This document shows, piece by piece, positions 3,017 through 61,955 of a stretch of 64,000 bases of DNA (positions are counted from its first letter, which is position 1; each line of letters opens with the position of its first letter). The notes beneath the pieces were generated by a model. It had not been told where the DNA came from. It saw nothing but the letters and a program-made list of their open reading frames with translations, and made no database searches. The translations under genes and the position numbers were made by a program. Location of the stretch: assembly GCA_038214655.1 (NCBI GenBank), contig JBBQRR010000010.1:6183-70182 (forward strand), read 5' to 3'. This DNA comes from Bacteroidia bacterium (GTDB taxonomy: Bacteria > Bacteroidota > Bacteroidia > B-17B0 > Aurantibacillaceae).

Positions 3017-3051
3017 TTAGTGATTAGTGGTTAGTGATTAGTGATTAGTGC
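3017..3051. repeat. Heptamer tandem repeat (TTAGTGN x5)
   Basis: TTAGTGA TTAGTGG TTAGTGA TTAGTGA TTAGTGC fills most of the intergenic gap. Confidence 0.9.
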
Positions 3052-4029
3052 CTAGTTTACAATTAACTTTTTTTGTATGGTGCCCTGTTTTTTTGTTTTT
3101 ATAGTTACAAAATAAATACCTTTCGGTAAGTCTTCTGTTTTATAGGTTTTATTTATTTGCCCCGGGGCGCAGACAAAGTTGTCTTTTAATAAAATATCTC
3201 CTTGTATGTTTAGCAAAGTTATTTCAAATTCGTCGTTTTGCAAATTTTTATAAGATAAATTAACCTTTTCGAAGGCAGGATTCGGGAAAAGTTTTACGCC
3301 CACATTCAAACCGACTGGCTCATGCATAGCCATAATACCACCAAAGCAGGAGTCCAGATTAAAATCCAGATAAGCATAACCTCGGTGAGTATCGCAATCC
3401 GTTGTAATAAAATCGAATTGAACATTTTTACCCAGATATGCAATTAAATTATAACATACTCTTGTCCAGTTTTTATAATATAACCCGGGAGTAGTGATGT
3501 CGGCTGGATGGAAAGCCGTATCTATAGAAATAGTATTAGAATCGAAATAAGCACTATCGATAAGAAATCCACTCGTCAAATCACGAAGAGTGTAAATAAA
3601 TTTAGGCGCATCATTGGCAGGATGATTATCAAATAGCACCACCGCATACGATATTGCTAGATCCCAATTATTAGGATTGATAACCATACCATAGCTCATT
3701 TTAGCGGCACTACAATCATCCACTACATCTCCTAATCTTGCCGAAATATTTCCTCCCCAAGGGCATGGAAGTTTTATTATACCTGTTGTAACAGAAGGGT
3801 CTGCGCCTGCATTACATAAACCATGCTGATCACTTGTTACATTCATAGCATTAAAATTAAATCCAGAATAAGGCATTGGGTTTGGAGAACTAAGAGAATC
3901 ACAAGTGTTATAACAATAATAGCCGTTCGACCAATTCAAAAAATTTCCAAATTCAAAACCAATATTTGTTTGCGTCTTTGCTTCCACAAAAAACAAGCAG
4001 GCAAAAACAAGAAATAAAAGTTTTTTCAT
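3052..4029 (-). CDS. T9SS type A sorting domain protein, Cys-rich N-terminal domain
   Basis: Signal peptide MKKLLFLVF; CTD LFPNPAFE...LPKGIYFV...KKLIVN. Confidence 0.85.
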   Translation of the reverse strand: MKKLLFLVFACLFFVEAKTQTNIGFEFGNFLNWSNGYYCYNTCDSLSSPNPMPYSGFNFNAMNVTSDQHGLCNAGADPSVTTGIIKLPCPWGGNISARLGDVVDDCSAAKMSYGMVINPNNWDLAISYAVVLFDNHPANDAPKFIYTLRDLTSGFLIDSAYFDSNTISIDTAFHPADITTPGLYYKNWTRVCYNLIAYLGKNVQFDFITTDCDTHRGYAYLDFNLDSCFGGIMAMHEPVGLNVGVKLFPNPAFEKVNLSYKNLQNDEFEITLLNIQGDILLKDNFVCAPGQINKTYKTEDLPKGIYFVTIKTKKQGTIQKKLIVN

Positions 4030-8011: not shown

Positions 8012-8017
8012 CCGATT

Positions 8018-8045
8018 TTTGCCACAAAGGCGCGAAGACACAAAG
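8018..8045 (+). repeat. CACAAAG/CGCGAAG 8-nt periodic repeat unit
   Basis: TTTGCCACAAAGGCGCGAAGACACAAAG; same family as 35743, 49874, 50160 and 61892. Confidence 0.8.
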
Positions 8046-8066
8046 GTTTGTAATTGTTGGTGTAAA

Positions 8067-9545: not shown

Positions 9546-9598
9546 ATACGGAAGTAAAAATACAAATAAACTACGAATGGAGAAAGTACGAAGGTGTG

Positions 9599-9661
9599 AT
9601 TAGGGATTAGTGGTTAGGGAATAGCCAATACAGTATTGAGTAATGAGAATAGAGAATTGAG
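9599..9661. repeat. Degenerate heptamer tandem array (9 units)
   Basis: ATTAGGG ATTAGTG GTTAGGG AATAGCC AATACAG TATTGAG TAATGAG AATAGAG AATTGAG; shares ATTAGTGGTTAG with 3023-3034. Confidence 0.7.
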
Positions 9662-9694
9662 ATGTAAGTGGGGGTGTCAGTTATTAATAGGGAA

Positions 9695-26591: not shown

Positions 26592-26727
26592 AAGTAGGCA
26601 GTAATCAGTTGGCAGGAAGCAGTTCGCAGTAAGAAGTCGGCAGTAATCAGTTGGCAGTAATCAGTTGGCAATAATCAGTAGGCAGTAAGCAGTTGGCAGT
26701 AAGCAGTTGGAAGTAAGCAGTTAGCAG
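26592..26727. repeat. Heptamer array with 14-bp higher-order period (19 units)
   Basis: Alternating CAGTTGG-type and CAGTAA(T/G)-type units. Confidence 0.95.
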
Positions 26728-27290: not shown

Positions 27291-27818
27291 ATGAAAAATA
27301 TTTTTACTTTTTTATTTTTTATTGCATGTACTGTTTCATTTTGCCAGTCAAAAGTAACCATTGGCATAAGTTTAGACTCGGTGAAGAAAATTTACCCGGG
27401 CATTAAAGAAGAAACATTTAAAAGAACCACTATTCTTACGAGACCCGAAACACTTTACGGTTTAGACGACGAGTGGGGCTATCGTTTTGATAATGGTAAA
27501 TTAGATTGGATATTTTTTGACAAATACATTGATACGCTAAGCGAGAAGAATTTTAAACTTTGTTTAAGCGCCGCCCAAAAAATTATTAAAGAGTACAGCA
27601 AAGCTTACGGCAAGCCTGATACTACCATAAAGTGTAATACCAATTTTGTTGACCCTTACAAAAAGCATCATTGGGGCTATAATGTTTTAGAAGCGCGTTG
27701 GAAAAATTACAAGGGGATGAAAATAAAAGTAGAATTTACTTTTATGGGCGGTAAAGGCGAGTACCATTTTTTAGTGAAAGTAAATTATTTTGGTAAGGAT
27801 TATCCTTATTACAATTGA
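27291..27818 (+). CDS. Hypothetical secreted protein
   Basis: Signal peptide; starts 1 nt after the upstream stop. Confidence 0.65.
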   Translation: MKNIFTFLFFIACTVSFCQSKVTIGISLDSVKKIYPGIKEETFKRTTILTRPETLYGLDDEWGYRFDNGKLDWIFFDKYIDTLSEKNFKLCLSAAQKIIKEYSKAYGKPDTTIKCNTNFVDPYKKHHWGYNVLEARWKNYKGMKIKVEFTFMGGKGEYHFLVKVNYFGKDYPYYN

Positions 27819-27824
27819 ACTCCT

Positions 27825-27916
27825 TGTCAAACTGAGCGTTTTGAGATTCTTTACGATGTTCTCGAAACGCTCGAACTGACAGTGATTCCAAAGGCCTAGA
27901 AACGCTCGAACTGACA
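27825..27916. repeat. REP-like palindromic cluster (3 units, TGTCA-ended)
   Basis: 27825-27846 is an imperfect inverse of 27860-27881; third copy at 27896-27916; related to 36158-36217. Confidence 0.8.
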
Positions 27917-32563: not shown

Positions 32564-35200
32564 ATGAACCCCAACGAGCAAATACCAGAGCAATTTCCTC
32601 TAAAAAGGAAGCCCTCGGCCCTAAAAAGACTGCTAAAGGCGCTATTTTGGCTCATAAGTATAATCTTAATTCTAGTCCTCATTCCAATTACGCTGCTGTT
32701 TATTTACGAAAAGGAAATAAAAAGCGCCATTATTACCGAAATAAACACCCATTTAAAGGCCAAAGTGTACATAAATCCCGATAATATCGACCTCACCATA
32801 CTCAGAACCTTTCCAAAAGCGGCATTGATTTTTAAAGATGTTACCGTTATGGGGGCCTTGGAGGAGCTAAAAACCGACACTCTTCTGCATGCCCAAAGCA
32901 TTTACCTGCTTTTTAACGCCAAAGATCTTTGGAACAAGAAGTACGAAATTCAGCAAATAAAGGTCTTGGGCTCTGATTTAAACCTGCTTGTAAATAAAGA
33001 AGGCGATACAAATTATGATATTTGGGAAAGCACTGCGGAGAGTTTAACAAAAACAGAAAAAGCTACAGCGTTTAAACTGGAAATGGTTTCTTTTAGCGAT
33101 TTTAATTTTTCGTATAAAAATATTCAGAGTAAAATTAAAACGGCGGCGGCTTTTAAAGAAGTTACTTTTTCGGGCAATTTTGGCGACAAAGAATATGCTT
33201 TGGAAGTAAAGGCTAATGGATATCTGAATTATATCAAATCAAACAAACGCACTTTTATAAAAAATAAAAATATTACGGCGGCAGTATCGGCTCAGGTAAA
33301 GGAGAAAACTTATACGCTTACCAATGCAGAAATTGGTTTAAATAAATTATTTTTTACAGTTAGCGGATGGGTGAGCGATAAGGAAACCGAAACGCCCGCA
33401 GAAATTGTCTTTAAAGGAAAAAATATTGATGTGCAATCTATCCTATCGTTGATGCCCGAACAGTTCCACGAAAAAATTAAAAATTACCGGAGCGAAGGGA
33501 TTTTTTACAGCGATTTAAGTTTAAAAGGAAATTTAGGGGATTATAATACGCTTGATATAAAAGCAAACTTCGGTACATCTAAAGCCAGCGTTACTTACGC
33601 TCCTACTAAAACAACTTTAGCAGACATCAGTTTTACAGGTTCTTTTGTGAAGGAGAAATTTTCCGCGGAGATACTTAGTCTTAAAGAAATTAAAGCGCAT
33701 CAAAATCAAAACTTTGTTTCAGGCGAATTTTCATTGAGTAATTTTGCCAGTCCGTATTTAAAATTAAAGGCCAAAGGAAATTACAATCTGACAGATTTTC
33801 TTACGCTTGTTCCTATCGACACAATTTCTTCCGCAAATGGGATGGTTGATTTTGAAGTGGAAGGCAATATTAATTTAAATGACGCCAAAACAAAGCAAAT
33901 AGGTACGAGCTCGGCCAAAGGTAAAATAGATTTAAAAGAAGTTGAGCTTGTGTTTAAAAACGGCCACACACTGCAAGTACCGGGCGGAGAAATTAGTATT
34001 GACAATGAAAGTCTGGAGACAAAAAACCTAACTGTTATTCACGGTAAATCCTCCATAGAGGTTAGCGGTAAGGCTACAAACTTTTTAAATTATGTTTTAA
34101 AACCCGAGCAGCCTTTATTTGTAGAATTACGTGTTAAATCGCCGTTTATTTATGTGGATGATTTTATTTTGCCTCCTGCAGAAGTGAAGAAGACAGAGAA
34201 CGGCGAGAAGCAAAATACGTTTAACCTGCAGGATAATATCAGCGCCGATTTAAAATTAGAAATTACAGATGTTGTGTTCCGCAGCTTTAAAGCACACAAT
34301 TTGCAGGGAGCCTTGGAAATAAAAAACAAAAAACTTATGGCTAAAAACTTTTCCTTCGAAGCATTTGGAGGAGATATTGCGTTTACCGGAGTTGCCGACG
34401 CAAGTAAGCCCGACAAACTCGATATTAGAGGAAGTACGAAGCTGGTTGATGTAAACATCAAACAAATGTTTACGCAGCTGAATAATTTTGGACAAACTGT
34501 AATAGAAGCGCAAAACATAAACGGCAAAGCCACCACACAGGTTGATTTTAGTGCAAGTTGGGATAATAAATTAGCATGCGATTTGAAGAGTGTACAGGCC
34601 GCTGCCGACTTAAGTATTGTTAACGGCGAATTGAATGATTACAAATTACTGGAAGTGTTGGGCGAATATGTGCAGCTGAAAGAATTGAAGCATGTGAAGT
34701 TCTCGAATTTGCAAACACATGTGGACATAAAAAACCAAACCGTTTATATTTCTAAAACTTCGGTTAAAAACTCGGCTCTTGATATTGAAATTTCGGGTTC
34801 GCAGACTTTTGATTATGTAATTGATTACAGAGTTAAGTTGCGATTGAGCGACTGGCTGGCGAAGCGGCCGGGCAAGAGCAAACAAATGGATGATGAGTTA
34901 TTAGAAACGGAGAACGACCCCGAAAACAGGCGCTGCGTGTTTATACACATGACCGGCACCATTGACAAACCGATTATTACCTACGACCGCAAGGCGATGA
35001 AGCAAAAAATTAAGGAAGATTTAAAGGAAGAAAAAAATACTTTGAAGAAAATTCTCAATGAAGAATTCGGTTGGTTTAAGAAAGACAGTCTCGCTAAAAA
35101 AGAAAACAAAAAAGACCAGCAATTTAAAATAGATTTCAACCAAAAGAAAAAAGAAGAGGAAAAGAAAAAGAAAGAGGAAGAGAATGATGGAGATTTTTAG
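32564..35200 (+). CDS. AsmA-like family protein
   Basis: N-terminal TM anchor, long beta-rich body, C-terminal G..TFD..IDY and GTIDKP. Confidence 0.8.
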   Translation: MNPNEQIPEQFPLKRKPSALKRLLKALFWLISIILILVLIPITLLFIYEKEIKSAIITEINTHLKAKVYINPDNIDLTILRTFPKAALIFKDVTVMGALEELKTDTLLHAQSIYLLFNAKDLWNKKYEIQQIKVLGSDLNLLVNKEGDTNYDIWESTAESLTKTEKATAFKLEMVSFSDFNFSYKNIQSKIKTAAAFKEVTFSGNFGDKEYALEVKANGYLNYIKSNKRTFIKNKNITAAVSAQVKEKTYTLTNAEIGLNKLFFTVSGWVSDKETETPAEIVFKGKNIDVQSILSLMPEQFHEKIKNYRSEGIFYSDLSLKGNLGDYNTLDIKANFGTSKASVTYAPTKTTLADISFTGSFVKEKFSAEILSLKEIKAHQNQNFVSGEFSLSNFASPYLKLKAKGNYNLTDFLTLVPIDTISSANGMVDFEVEGNINLNDAKTKQIGTSSAKGKIDLKEVELVFKNGHTLQVPGGEISIDNESLETKNLTVIHGKSSIEVSGKATNFLNYVLKPEQPLFVELRVKSPFIYVDDFILPPAEVKKTENGEKQNTFNLQDNISADLKLEITDVVFRSFKAHNLQGALEIKNKKLMAKNFSFEAFGGDIAFTGVADASKPDKLDIRGSTKLVDVNIKQMFTQLNNFGQTVIEAQNINGKATTQVDFSASWDNKLACDLKSVQAAADLSIVNGELNDYKLLEVLGEYVQLKELKHVKFSNLQTHVDIKNQTVYISKTSVKNSALDIEISGSQTFDYVIDYRVKLRLSDWLAKRPGKSKQMDDELLETENDPENRRCVFIHMTGTIDKPIITYDRKAMKQKIKEDLKEEKNTLKKILNEEFGWFKKDSLAKKENKKDQQFKIDFNQKKKEEEKKKKEEENDGDF

Positions 35201-35206
35201 TATAAA

Positions 35207-35773
35207 ATGGTAATAGAAAAATACTTTATAGCCATAGTCTTACCCGAGCCGCTACAGCAAGAAGTAATGGCTTTTAAAGAATACGTTAAAGACAATTTTA
35301 ATAGCAAGGGAGCTTTACGTTCGCCCGCCCATATTACCTTGCACATGCCTTTTGAGTGGAAATCTGAGAAAGAAGAATTTCTGATAAAAACCTTATCAGA
35401 ATTTAAATTCAACGAGGAGTTCAAATTAGAATTAAAAAATTTTTCCTGCTTTGAACCGAGAGTGGTTTATGTGGATGTTGTAAAGAACGACACTCTGAAC
35501 CAATTACAAAAAGAACTCGTTAAGCACGTAAAGCTAAACCTCGGTTTAATGAACGAAGCAGAAAACATGCGCGGCTTTCACCCACACGCCACCATCGCAT
35601 TCCGTGACCTGAATAAAGCCAAATTTACAGGGGCCTGGGAACATTTTAAAACCCAAACTTACTCCGCCAACTTCTCAACCAAAAGCTTCCATCTGCTAAA
35701 GCATTCGCAAGGTATCTGGAACATCTATAAGGAGTTCGGCTTTTTGCCGCAAAGTCACAAAGGCGCAAAGTAG
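35207..35773 (+). CDS. 2'-5' RNA ligase / 2H phosphoesterase family protein
   Basis: Two HxT motifs: PAHITL and FHPHATI. Confidence 0.88.
   Translation: MVIEKYFIAIVLPEPLQQEVMAFKEYVKDNFNSKGALRSPAHITLHMPFEWKSEKEEFLIKTLSEFKFNEEFKLELKNFSCFEPRVVYVDVVKNDTLNQLQKELVKHVKLNLGLMNEAENMRGFHPHATIAFRDLNKAKFTGAWEHFKTQTYSANFSTKSFHLLKHSQGIWNIYKEFGFLPQSHKGAK
35743..35770 (+). repeat. CACAAAG-family repeat forming the 3' end of the 2H gene
   Basis: TTTGCCGCAAAGTCACAAAGGCGCAAAG followed by TAG; encodes LPQSHKGAK. Confidence 0.75.
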
Positions 35774-35796
35774 CTTTCTATTTTTACGGAACAACC

Positions 35797-35827
35797 CTGC
35801 CTACTGCCAACTCCTTACTGCCTACTG
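35797..35827 (-). repeat. Heptamer repeat, same family as 26592 in opposite orientation
   Basis: Reverse complement reads CAGTAGG CAGTAAG GAGTTGG CAGTAGG CAG. Confidence 0.85.
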
Positions 35828-35859
35828 ACCACGCCCGATTACAGCGCTATGCCAATCAT

Positions 35860-35890
35860 TTTGCCATTTTGCTCAATATTTGTACATTTG
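35860..35890 (+). promoter_or_regulatory. Bacteroidota housekeeping promoter upstream of the riboswitch
   Basis: TTTG (35860-35863), 19-nt spacer, TACATTTG (35883-35890). Confidence 0.7.
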
Positions 35891-35908: not shown

Positions 35909-36076
35909 CTTATCAAGAAAGGCAGAGGGATACGCCCGTTGAAGCCTTGGCAACCCTGACAGAATTAAAAAGTCAGAAGTAAAAAGTCAAAACTCAAGTT
36001 TTTAACTTTTCACTTTTAATTTTTAACTTTTCGAAGAAGGTGCCAACTCGTTCAGATTAAAATCTGGAGAGATAAG
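35909..36076 (+). promoter_or_regulatory. SAM-I (S-box) riboswitch with enlarged P3
   Basis: P1 CTTATC/GATAAG; AAGA; P2 AAGGC/GCCTT with GAGGGA; GGCAACC; AAGGTGCCAA; P4 TTCAGATT/AATCTGGA; lies upstream of a methyltransferase and metH. Confidence 0.92.
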
Positions 36077-36107
36077 TCAGAATGATATATGATTAAAAAA
36101 TTCATAC

Positions 36108-36144
36108 AATCTCTTCTGACTAAATTTGGAAGGGATTTTTTTTT
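36108..36144 (+). terminator. Riboswitch expression-platform terminator
   Basis: Stem AATCTCTTCT/GGAAGGGATT plus T-run; antiterminator AGTCAGAA (36075-36082) pairs with TTCTGACT (36114-36121). Confidence 0.85.
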
Positions 36145-36157
36145 GGAATAAAGCCAA

Positions 36158-36217
36158 TGTCAGATCGAGCGTAGTCGAGGGCATTGTATTAGTTTCTCGA
36201 CTACGCTCGAAATGACA
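36158..36217. repeat. REP-like palindrome in the methyltransferase 5' UTR
   Basis: 22-nt arms TGTCAGATCGAGCGTAGTCGAG and CTCGACTACGCTCGAAATGACA, 20/22 complementary. Confidence 0.88.
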
Positions 36218-36228
36218 GAAAGAATAAA

Positions 36229-36993
36229 ATGAGTAAAGAAGTGCTAAATAGATTCGCTGATCGCGTAGATAACTACGTTAAATACCGGCCGCATTACCCC
36301 GCGGAAGTATTTGACTTTTTAGAAAGCGAAGGAATTATTGCCGAGGGCTCAATCATTGCAGATATAGGTTCCGGCACAGGAATTTCAGCTGAGCAACTTT
36401 TACAACGTGGTTATACCGTTTATGGAATAGAGCCCAACAAAGAAATGCGCGAAGCCGCCGAAAATATCTTAAAAGAATTCAAAAAATTTAAAAGCGTAGA
36501 AGCAACTGCAGAAAACACGAAACTCGAAAATAATTCGGTTAACGCTATCGTTGCCGGACAAGCCTTTCATTGGTTCGATAGAGAAAAAACGAAGGCCGAG
36601 TTCAAACGAATCCTTAAACCAAACGGCCAAGTTGTTTTAATGTGGAATGACCGCCGCACTGATACAACCGACTTTTTAAAAGTGTACGAAGATTTTTTAC
36701 AAATGTTTGGCACCGATTACAAAGAGGTAAATCACAAAAATACGCAGGACAAAAAAATATTTACCGAATTTTTTGGCGGAAACTTTAACGAAAAAAGTTT
36801 TTACAATTTTCAGGATGTCGATTTTGCCGGATTAAAAGGCCGCGTGCTTTCATCTTCGTATATGCCCGGCGAAGGGCACACCGATTATGATTTTATGATT
36901 AGCACCTTGAAGAAAATCTTCATACGCTACCAGGAAAACGGAAAAGTTAAACTGGATTACGATACAAAAATTTATTACGGAGAAATACAATAG
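36229..36993 (+). CDS. Class I SAM-dependent methyltransferase
   Basis: Y.KYRP.YP; ADIGSGTG; GIEPN..M; AGQAFHWFD. Confidence 0.92.
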   Translation: MSKEVLNRFADRVDNYVKYRPHYPAEVFDFLESEGIIAEGSIIADIGSGTGISAEQLLQRGYTVYGIEPNKEMREAAENILKEFKKFKSVEATAENTKLENNSVNAIVAGQAFHWFDREKTKAEFKRILKPNGQVVLMWNDRRTDTTDFLKVYEDFLQMFGTDYKEVNHKNTQDKKIFTEFFGGNFNEKSFYNFQDVDFAGLKGRVLSSSYMPGEGHTDYDFMISTLKKIFIRYQENGKVKLDYDTKIYYGEIQ

Positions 36994-61821: not shown

Positions 61822-61955
61822 CCGCAAAGAGCGCAGAGAAAATACTGCGCAGAGAACGTAACGTTTTTTTGTGCCGGCGAAGTGTTGATTTCGCGCAAAG
61901 ACGCAGAGACGCAAAGGTCTTAGTGGTGCTTAGTTGGAGCGCATAGAACGCAAAG
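61822..61955. repeat. Cluster of CGCAAAG/CGCAGAG 8-nt periodic units
   Basis: CCGCAAAGAGCGCAGAG; CTGCGCAGAG; CGCGCAAAGACGCAGAGACGCAAAG; AACGCAAAG. Confidence 0.75.

Follow-up and report, generated by a model that had tools for sequence, protein, structure and literature searches.

A SAM-I riboswitch with a P3 arm of opposed heptamer repeats upstream of a methyltransferase-metH operon in an uncultured Bacteroidia clade

The leader of a methyltransferase-metH operon in an uncultured clade of Bacteroidia contains a complete SAM-I (S-box) aptamer whose P3 arm is extended by two facing arrays of 7-nt units. The riboswitch is of a known kind, and its P3 arm is a variant of the long stem-loops known from riboswitches as "variable insertions". 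The preferred reading, held with a probability of roughly three in four, takes the leader for a normal SAM-OFF riboswitch of the terminator type, in which P3 carries a tolerated insertion composed of the lineage's own heptamer repeats.

The leader was analysed within a 64-kb stretch of DNA (the window), and all coordinates of the window's own features are positions in that stretch (Table 1); individual relatives are referred to by handles of the form L001. Among sequencing runs, the sequence was found solely in DNA contigs of sediment metagenomes. A neighbouring protein has a type IX secretion sorting domain, and the nearest homologues come from Bacteroidia MAGs. Relatives keep the gene order LigT, leader, methyltransferase and metH. 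Directly 5' of the LigT gene, the window contains an 878-aa open reading frame (32564-35200) in which no Pfam domain was found at E<=0.001; the homologous position is filled in L170-L172.

The SAM-I aptamer and its expression platform

RF00162 is the sole Rfam family matched by cmscan in the 64-kb window. The match reaches 70.2 bits (E=2.3e-14; gathering score 44.4) and spans model positions 1-108 of 108. No tRNA was found in the 64-kb window, and a permissive-threshold Rfam search of it added no other structured RNA; a Thr_leader match at 1816-1893 (E=0.005), which overlaps a terminator-like inverted repeat at 1813-1857, was dropped because it reaches 36 bits against a gathering threshold of 55. 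In the cmscan alignment of the leader, the P1-P4 four-way junction and the core nucleotides (AGA..GG, GAGGGA, UGAAG, GCAACC, GGUGCCAA and AGAUAAG) are all present; an earlier note on this DNA (the original prediction) had described the SAM-I core motifs as intact, and the full-length match bears this out. The leader presumably binds SAM. It resembles other members of RF00162 in its full-length aptamer, helices P1-P4 and conserved junction nucleotides, as well as in its OFF-type terminator logic and its place upstream of methionine/SAM genes. It differs from them in the P3 loop, which is made of heptamer repeats and measures 77 nt in the cmscan alignment, compared with 11 in the model.

The helices and the consensus core are also kept in 20 further orthologous leaders, with that of L010 alone slightly below the gathering score; the leaders of L173 and L175, which have a variant P1, were recognised via cmscan. 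The L010 leader (936-1102) combines a variant P1 (GCTTATTGCG...GCAAATAAGC) with a long heptamer P3, and its 42.1 bits against the gathering score of 44.4 mean that default annotation would miss it, a warning for riboswitch annotation. In the more distant relative L011 (818-967), which has a short P3, the insertion in P4 measures 45 nt against 11 in the model, so that another permissive site of the riboswitch is expanded. By inspection, ACG at 35932-34 in the P2 apical loop could pair with CGU at 36049-51 in J3-4 to form the pseudoknot; the same triplets are seen by inspection in L001, L005, L008 and L010, and CAG/CUG occupies those places in L012. Upstream of P1, the motif GTAnnTTTG is invariant across a four-leader alignment of close relatives (A1). 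It contains the box TAnnTTTG, which we take to be the Bacteroidetes sigma-A promoter consensus.

Table 1. Positions of the leader features and of the two regulated genes in the window
Feature	Position	Strand	Basis and details
Predicted -7 promoter box, Bacteroidetes-type, TACATTTG (TAnnTTTG)	35883..35890	+	read from sequence; about 17 nt 5' of P1
SAM-I (S-box) aptamer, complete P1-P4	35907..36078	+	RF00162; same match in orthologous leaders
P3 extension, 5' arm: heptamer array GACAGAA TTAAAAA GTCAGAA GTAAAAA GTCAAAA	35957..35993	+	TRF, fold, lag test
Antiterminator look-alike AGTCAGAAG in the P3 5' arm, judged coincidental	35971..35979	+	exact reverse complement of CTTCTGACT at 36113-21
P3 extension, apical loop	35994..35997	+	MFE folds, insert and full leader
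P3 extension, 3' arm: complementary array GTTTTTA ACTTTTC ACTTTTA ATTTTTA ACTTTTC	35998..36033	+	TRF, fold
Native antiterminator hairpin, 47 nt	36075..36121	+	seed AGTCAGAA at 36075-82 pairs with TTCTGACT at 36114-21 (8 nt)
Intrinsic terminator, 12-bp stem 36108-19/36126-37, 6-nt loop, T9 at 36136-44	36108..36144	+	terminator scan, fold
Class I SAM-dependent methyltransferase, 254 aa, first regulated gene	36229..36993	+	Pfam Methyltransf_11/25
metH, B12-dependent methionine synthase, 1231 aa	37166..40861	+	Pfam S-methyl_trans, Pterin_bind, B12-binding, Met_synt_B12

The native antiterminator (-13.0 kcal/mol) overlaps both the 3' strand of P1 (36070-78) and the 5' arm of the terminator (-10.8 kcal/mol). 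Across 19 orthologous expression platforms, 93% of the cells in the antiterminator seed are paired, a share that drops to 21-56% on sliding the partner. Two-sided changes affect three of the seven seed pairs (12 cells), from AU to GC in seven leaders and from UA to CG in three. The terminator is present in all leaders, with compensatory changes in relatives; in some leaders it has changed to TCCGAC or TCCGGC, and the native seed has changed along with it. Folds of the growing transcript proceed from the aptamer with its P3 hairpin (to 36078) to the native antiterminator, which appears in the prefix fold ending at 36122, and then to the terminator, which is part of the full-length MFE structure.

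Judged from sequence and thermodynamic folding, this is a classic SAM-OFF terminator design on a methyltransferase-metH operon. With SAM bound, P1 would hold its 3' strand, the antiterminator would be blocked, and the terminator stem with its T9 run would halt RNA polymerase; without SAM, the antiterminator would form and lead to read-through. Thermodynamic folding and the covariation of the seed are the basis of this termination logic, and the switch would presumably act in the same OFF sense in vivo.

The heptamer-built P3 arm and its orthologues

GGCAACC (35949-55) and AAGGTGCCAA (36037-46) are separated by 81 nt, for which the original prediction had described about 80 nt of opposed 7-nt units; all of the coordinates and strings that it gave were verified. 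The units TAAAAAG/TCAGAAG/TAAAAAG/TCAAAAC at 35966-93 oppose TTTTTAA/CTTTTCA/CTTTTAA/TTTTTAA/CTTTTCG at 35999-36033, and TRF reports period-7 arrays at 35966-92 and 36000-31. Lag-7 identity within the arms is 0.62, a value reached by none of 2000 arm shuffles (p<0.0005). The arm folds into a hairpin of about 30 bp, in which helices of 5-7 bp alternate with small internal loops about every seven bases. The TRF and Rfam results also confirm that the extra RNA of P3 consists of heptamer repeats like those with which the intergenic DNA of this genome is filled.

The P3 insert, measured as the stretch from CAACC to GGTG, was compared among 21 distinct orthologous leaders, all upstream of the same methyltransferase-metH operon; L010, L011, L012 and L019 are among the matches listed in a protein-alignment search of genome contigs, most of the listed matches being from distant phyla. 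The insert is long (73-93 nt) in 14 of the 21 leaders, intermediate (40-59 nt) in three and short (14-30 nt) in four, and long inserts reach down to about 54% methyltransferase identity. In a methyltransferase tree of 17 leaders, the window's clade comprises ten long arms with three shorter ones (30, 40 and 59 nt) nested inside. Its occurrence in 14 orthologous leaders indicates that the long arm is ancestral to the clade and is no private insertion; one old gain followed by a few reductions would be the economical reading of these sequences. The original prediction held that a repeat element had entered this riboswitch. The comparison does not support this claim: relatives have the same long P3, the observation that the original prediction itself had named as refuting it, although their P3 is composed of heptamers that differ from those of the window, and shorter versions are nested within the clade.

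All long inserts fold to hairpins, with 18-33 bp in the MFE structure and z-scores of -2.2 to -6. The best lag is 7 or 14 in 12 of the 14 (each p<=0.0005), and two have a period of 8. The units vary from leader to leader (GTCAAAA and ACTTTTA in the window, AACAGTT and TAACTGA in L001, AGTTAGT and CGAACTA in L010, GTTGAAT and ATTCATA in L097), and a short in-phase anchor recurs, reading A(G/A)T(T) in the 5' arm and the complement of this in the 3' arm. Two of the leaders with an intermediate P3 have arrays of other forms. In L092 (~750-810), five GAATTnn/GAATGCA units lie in the loop in one direction, without a complementary arm; in L178 (~1330-1380), the units are self-complementary (GGAATTn), and one direct array folds onto itself. 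These two forms may capture stages in the origin or decay of opposed arrays.

The window and L001, its closest relative, are 93% identical in the 5' aptamer core and 91% in the expression platform. The inserts of the same pair share 58% identity, against a shuffled baseline of 54%, and four-fold degenerate sites are 65% identical. Among L010, L098 and L103, the 5' cores are identical and the 3' parts 85-97% identical, and the inserts are barely alignable. Over the eight pairs compared, four-fold sites of the adjacent gene are 28-67% identical. A "hypervariable cassette" with accelerated turnover between flanks that are 97-100% identical was considered and dropped, because the four-fold sites have themselves diverged to this extent; the claim is therefore limited to divergence at least as fast as that of synonymous sites. 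The safe statement is that the primary sequence of the arm appears to be unconstrained and to diverge at such a rate.

Length, pairing and the 7-nt register persist, and the two arms co-vary. The 5' and 3' arms of the same leader average -19.5 kcal/mol, compared with -9.9 (sd 4.1) for swapped arms, and in 9 of 12 cases the best partner of a 5' arm is the 3' arm of its own leader, the three exceptions being close relatives that share unit types. The two arms of the window pair better with each other than with any foreign arm. Inserts do not differ within species, a species being defined here by a methyltransferase protein that is identical in several samples or assemblies, so the P3 arm is no fast phase-variable tract.

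Under the preferred reading of a tolerated insertion, the extra ~70 nt of P3 would form a solvent-exposed stem-loop that leaves the aptamer core undisturbed. The sequence of the arm would drift freely and be re-homogenised in 7-nt units, and the hairpin may be kept through selection against misfolding or through DNA-level quasi-palindrome correction; the arm is presumably neutral. A 7-nt periodicity that outlasts such divergence points to continuing 7-nt homogenisation, by slippage or conversion, or else to selection. The narrow range of lengths and the lasting periodicity are unlike pure neutral drift, and hint at a function or at an active repeat-maintaining process.

That the heptamer hairpin is a selected functional module, and no tolerated filler, is unlikely. 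Such a module could serve as a double-stranded RNA substrate of RNase III that affects the fate of the leader or mRNA, as a dock for a repeat-binding protein, or as a timer of polymerase pausing and aptamer folding. A function of this sort would fit the length held in 14 leaders despite the divergence of four-fold sites, the retention of the hairpin with its periodic AGT/ACT anchor, and the identity of the insert across samples within species; the heptamer hairpin in the 5'-UTR of Haemophilus influenzae hmw1A, which is processed by RNase III, is a precedent (PMC12721329). However, the four lineages with a short P3 and the three with an intermediate one have an intact aptamer and platform, and the arm is thus dispensable in those lineages. 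The array of L092, moreover, is one-directional and unpaired, and beyond the short anchor the arms have neither a conserved sequence nor a candidate partner protein.

Complementarity to the terminator and other repeats in the window

The 9-nt complement to the terminator that the original prediction pointed out in the P3 5' arm exists, and it is one base longer than the native 8-nt match. The original prediction further proposed that this element, AGUCAGAAG, pairs with 36113-21 as a SAM-independent second antiterminator that retunes the switch to read-through, which is very improbable on the evidence from relatives and from folding. Insert shuffling gives p ~0.017 for the match, in one of 18 leaders tested; the GUC of the 9-mer sits in a P3 internal loop and could act as a toehold, and an 8-mer of L098, GATTAGTT, is complementary to that leader's own terminator flank (p=0.04). 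The complementarity is, however, unconserved. The 9-mer is missing in L001, in which the best complement to the terminator region is 5 nt, and the corresponding lengths are 4 nt in L090, 5 nt in L093, 7 nt in L096 and the 8 nt of L098; Fisher's method, computed by hand from the 12 long-P3 p-values, yields p ~0.35. Nor does the P3 arm follow the terminator where the latter has changed to TCCGAC or TCCGGC. Because the repeat units are rich in AGT/CAG, the shuffle test understates the chance rate of such matches, and the resemblance probably reflects this composition.

The energetics of folding are also unfavourable to a second antiterminator. The 9-mer is largely buried in the P3 hairpin, and its release costs +8.5 kcal/mol against -11.7 kcal/mol for the duplex that it would form; the terminator itself is worth -10.8 and the native antiterminator -13.0. 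A structure forced to contain the look-alike pairing has -50.9 kcal/mol and lies 7.2-7.7 kcal/mol above the native antiterminator state (-58.1) and the terminator state (-58.6); the probability of this pairing in the ensemble is <=1e-6. With a folded aptamer, the pairing would be a pseudoknot across P1, and by the time that the terminator arm emerges, the P3 hairpin has been complete for about 75 nt of transcription. The successive states in co-transcriptional folding are the aptamer, the native antiterminator and the terminator. The 9-nt complement would then be a chance by-product of the AGT/CAG-rich units, with no regulatory role.

A recent arrival of a MITE or REP-like mobile miniature element in the P3 loop is just as hard to credit: the inverted-repeat architecture and the presence of other dispersed repeats in the genome, such as the palindrome at 36158-36217, would suit it, but the arm has the same place and size in 14 of the 21 orthologous leaders, no second copy of it was found within the 64-kb window with up to 3 mismatches allowed, and no target-site duplication is visible at its boundaries, which are the conserved P3 base CCCTGA...TCAGAAGG. 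With no other copy in the window and orthologous positions occupied in relatives, an identity as a mobile element was rejected.

Beyond the riboswitch, TRF reports period-7 arrays at about ten further places in the window, and about a third of its rows for the window have a period of 7, 14 or 21. Intergenic period-7 arrays with an AGT anchor are found at 3017-3056, 9596-9662, 26593-26727 and 35797-35828, and AGTTGGC/AGTAAGC, in 9.6 copies, is among the arrays of this type. The array at 35797-35828 lies just 5' of the riboswitch promoter and corresponds, in reverse complement, to that at 26593-26727, and an intergenic array of five TTAGTGA units ends 4 nt from a minus-strand ATG at 3010-12. In relatives, within the short flanks covered, a strict period-7 detector found almost nothing outside the P3 arms, a result that carries little information. 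A repeat family with 8-nt units (CGCAAAGG-like, e.g., TTTTGCCACAAAGGCGCGAAGACACAAAG) occurs at 8017-8049, 35742-35774, 50160-50188/50311-50339 and 61888-61920; one copy overlaps the LigT gene at its 3' end, and two copies form an inverted pair separated by 122 nt.

The leader itself contains a GC-rich palindrome, TGTCAGATCGAGCGTAGTCGAG ... CTCGACTACGCTCGAAATGACA, at 36158-36217, between the terminator and the methyltransferase start and 14 nt past the T-run. The palindrome is present at this site in the window and in L001 and absent from L005 and L008. A related copy lies at 27815-27891, and the same metagenomes contain further ones on other contigs. The appearance of the palindrome is that of a dispersed REP/MITE-like repeat, inserted into the leader past the decision point.

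Known repeat systems and significance

Riboswitches tolerate long, non-conserved stem-loops, termed "variable insertions", at permissive sites (Barrick & Breaker 2007, PMC2258182). The P3 arm described here is likewise a long, unconserved stem-loop that leaves the core intact, the core remaining 85-100% identical. Its internal 7-nt periodicity and its narrow, clade-wide length are features that the published description lacks.

Heptamer direct repeats, including TAACTGA, have been described from Beggiatoaceae, Cyanobacteria and five Bacteroidetes; the TAACTGA repeats are mostly one-directional and are thought to be single-stranded sites near start codons, and riboswitches are unmentioned in that account (MacGregor 2015, PMC4679880). 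Ever since their first description, repeats of this kind, the cyanobacterial STRRs among them, have lacked an established function or generating mechanism. The P3 arms share with these TAACTGA/STRR heptamers the tandem 7-nt units in non-coding Bacteroidetes DNA, and the 3' arm of L001 consists of exact TAACTGA units, three in number, with their complement on the opposite arm. They differ in that two opposed arrays pair inside a riboswitch helix. The exact unit occurs only in the relatives L001 and L005 and is absent from the window, whose units are GTCAAAA-like and ACTTTTA-like. The window arm thus resembles TAACTGA/STRR-type repeats and, by unit sequence, is not a member of them.

The nearest precedent for repeats of this kind in a structured RNA is that of the STRRs of cyanobacterial RNase P RNA. 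In heterocyst-forming cyanobacteria, STRR heptamers reportedly occur within the gene for RNase P RNA (a finding attributed to Vioque, 1997), where they are said to extend a peripheral variable helix, P12, without destroying function. Both cases involve lineage-specific heptamers in a structured RNA, but the phylum and the RNA are different ones.

In the 5'-UTR of Haemophilus influenzae hmw1A, a hairpin of (ATCTTTC)n heptamers is cleaved by RNase III (PMC12721329). There, as here, heptamers are transcribed into a long 5'-UTR hairpin. The hmw1A tract, in contrast, undergoes phase variation, and its partner is a G-rich arm without repeats, whereas both arms of the P3 hairpin are repeats and are identical within species. 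Full-text literature searches did not turn up any published riboswitch helix made of opposed heptamer arrays.

In its regulation the leader is unremarkable, with a SAM-OFF riboswitch in front of a metH operon; the extra antiterminator proposed for it, unsupported here, would have represented a novel means of retuning riboswitches. The kept length of the arm and its 7-nt register are the only unexplained part of the system. It is rather doubtful, though conceivable, that the arm is a maintained module, with its length (about five units per arm) and register either selected or actively regenerated. One candidate would be a partner that binds double-stranded RNA or the repeats, RNase III or a lineage-specific protein, through which the SAM switch would gain a second input; another would be a hairpin-templated mechanism at the DNA level that preserves the complementarity of the two arrays.

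An uncultured clade of Bacteroidia shares a hairpin of about 85 nt, built of opposed heptamers, in one helix of one riboswitch. This is an orthologous, precisely bounded and presumably transcribed heptamer instance that recurs in many species, which makes the dynamics of the repeats measurable. If the arm is indeed maintained, its place between strongly conserved flanks in many species would make it the first natural "ruler" for heptamer dynamics, by which it could be followed how STRR/TAACTGA-type repeats arise, homogenise and turn over.
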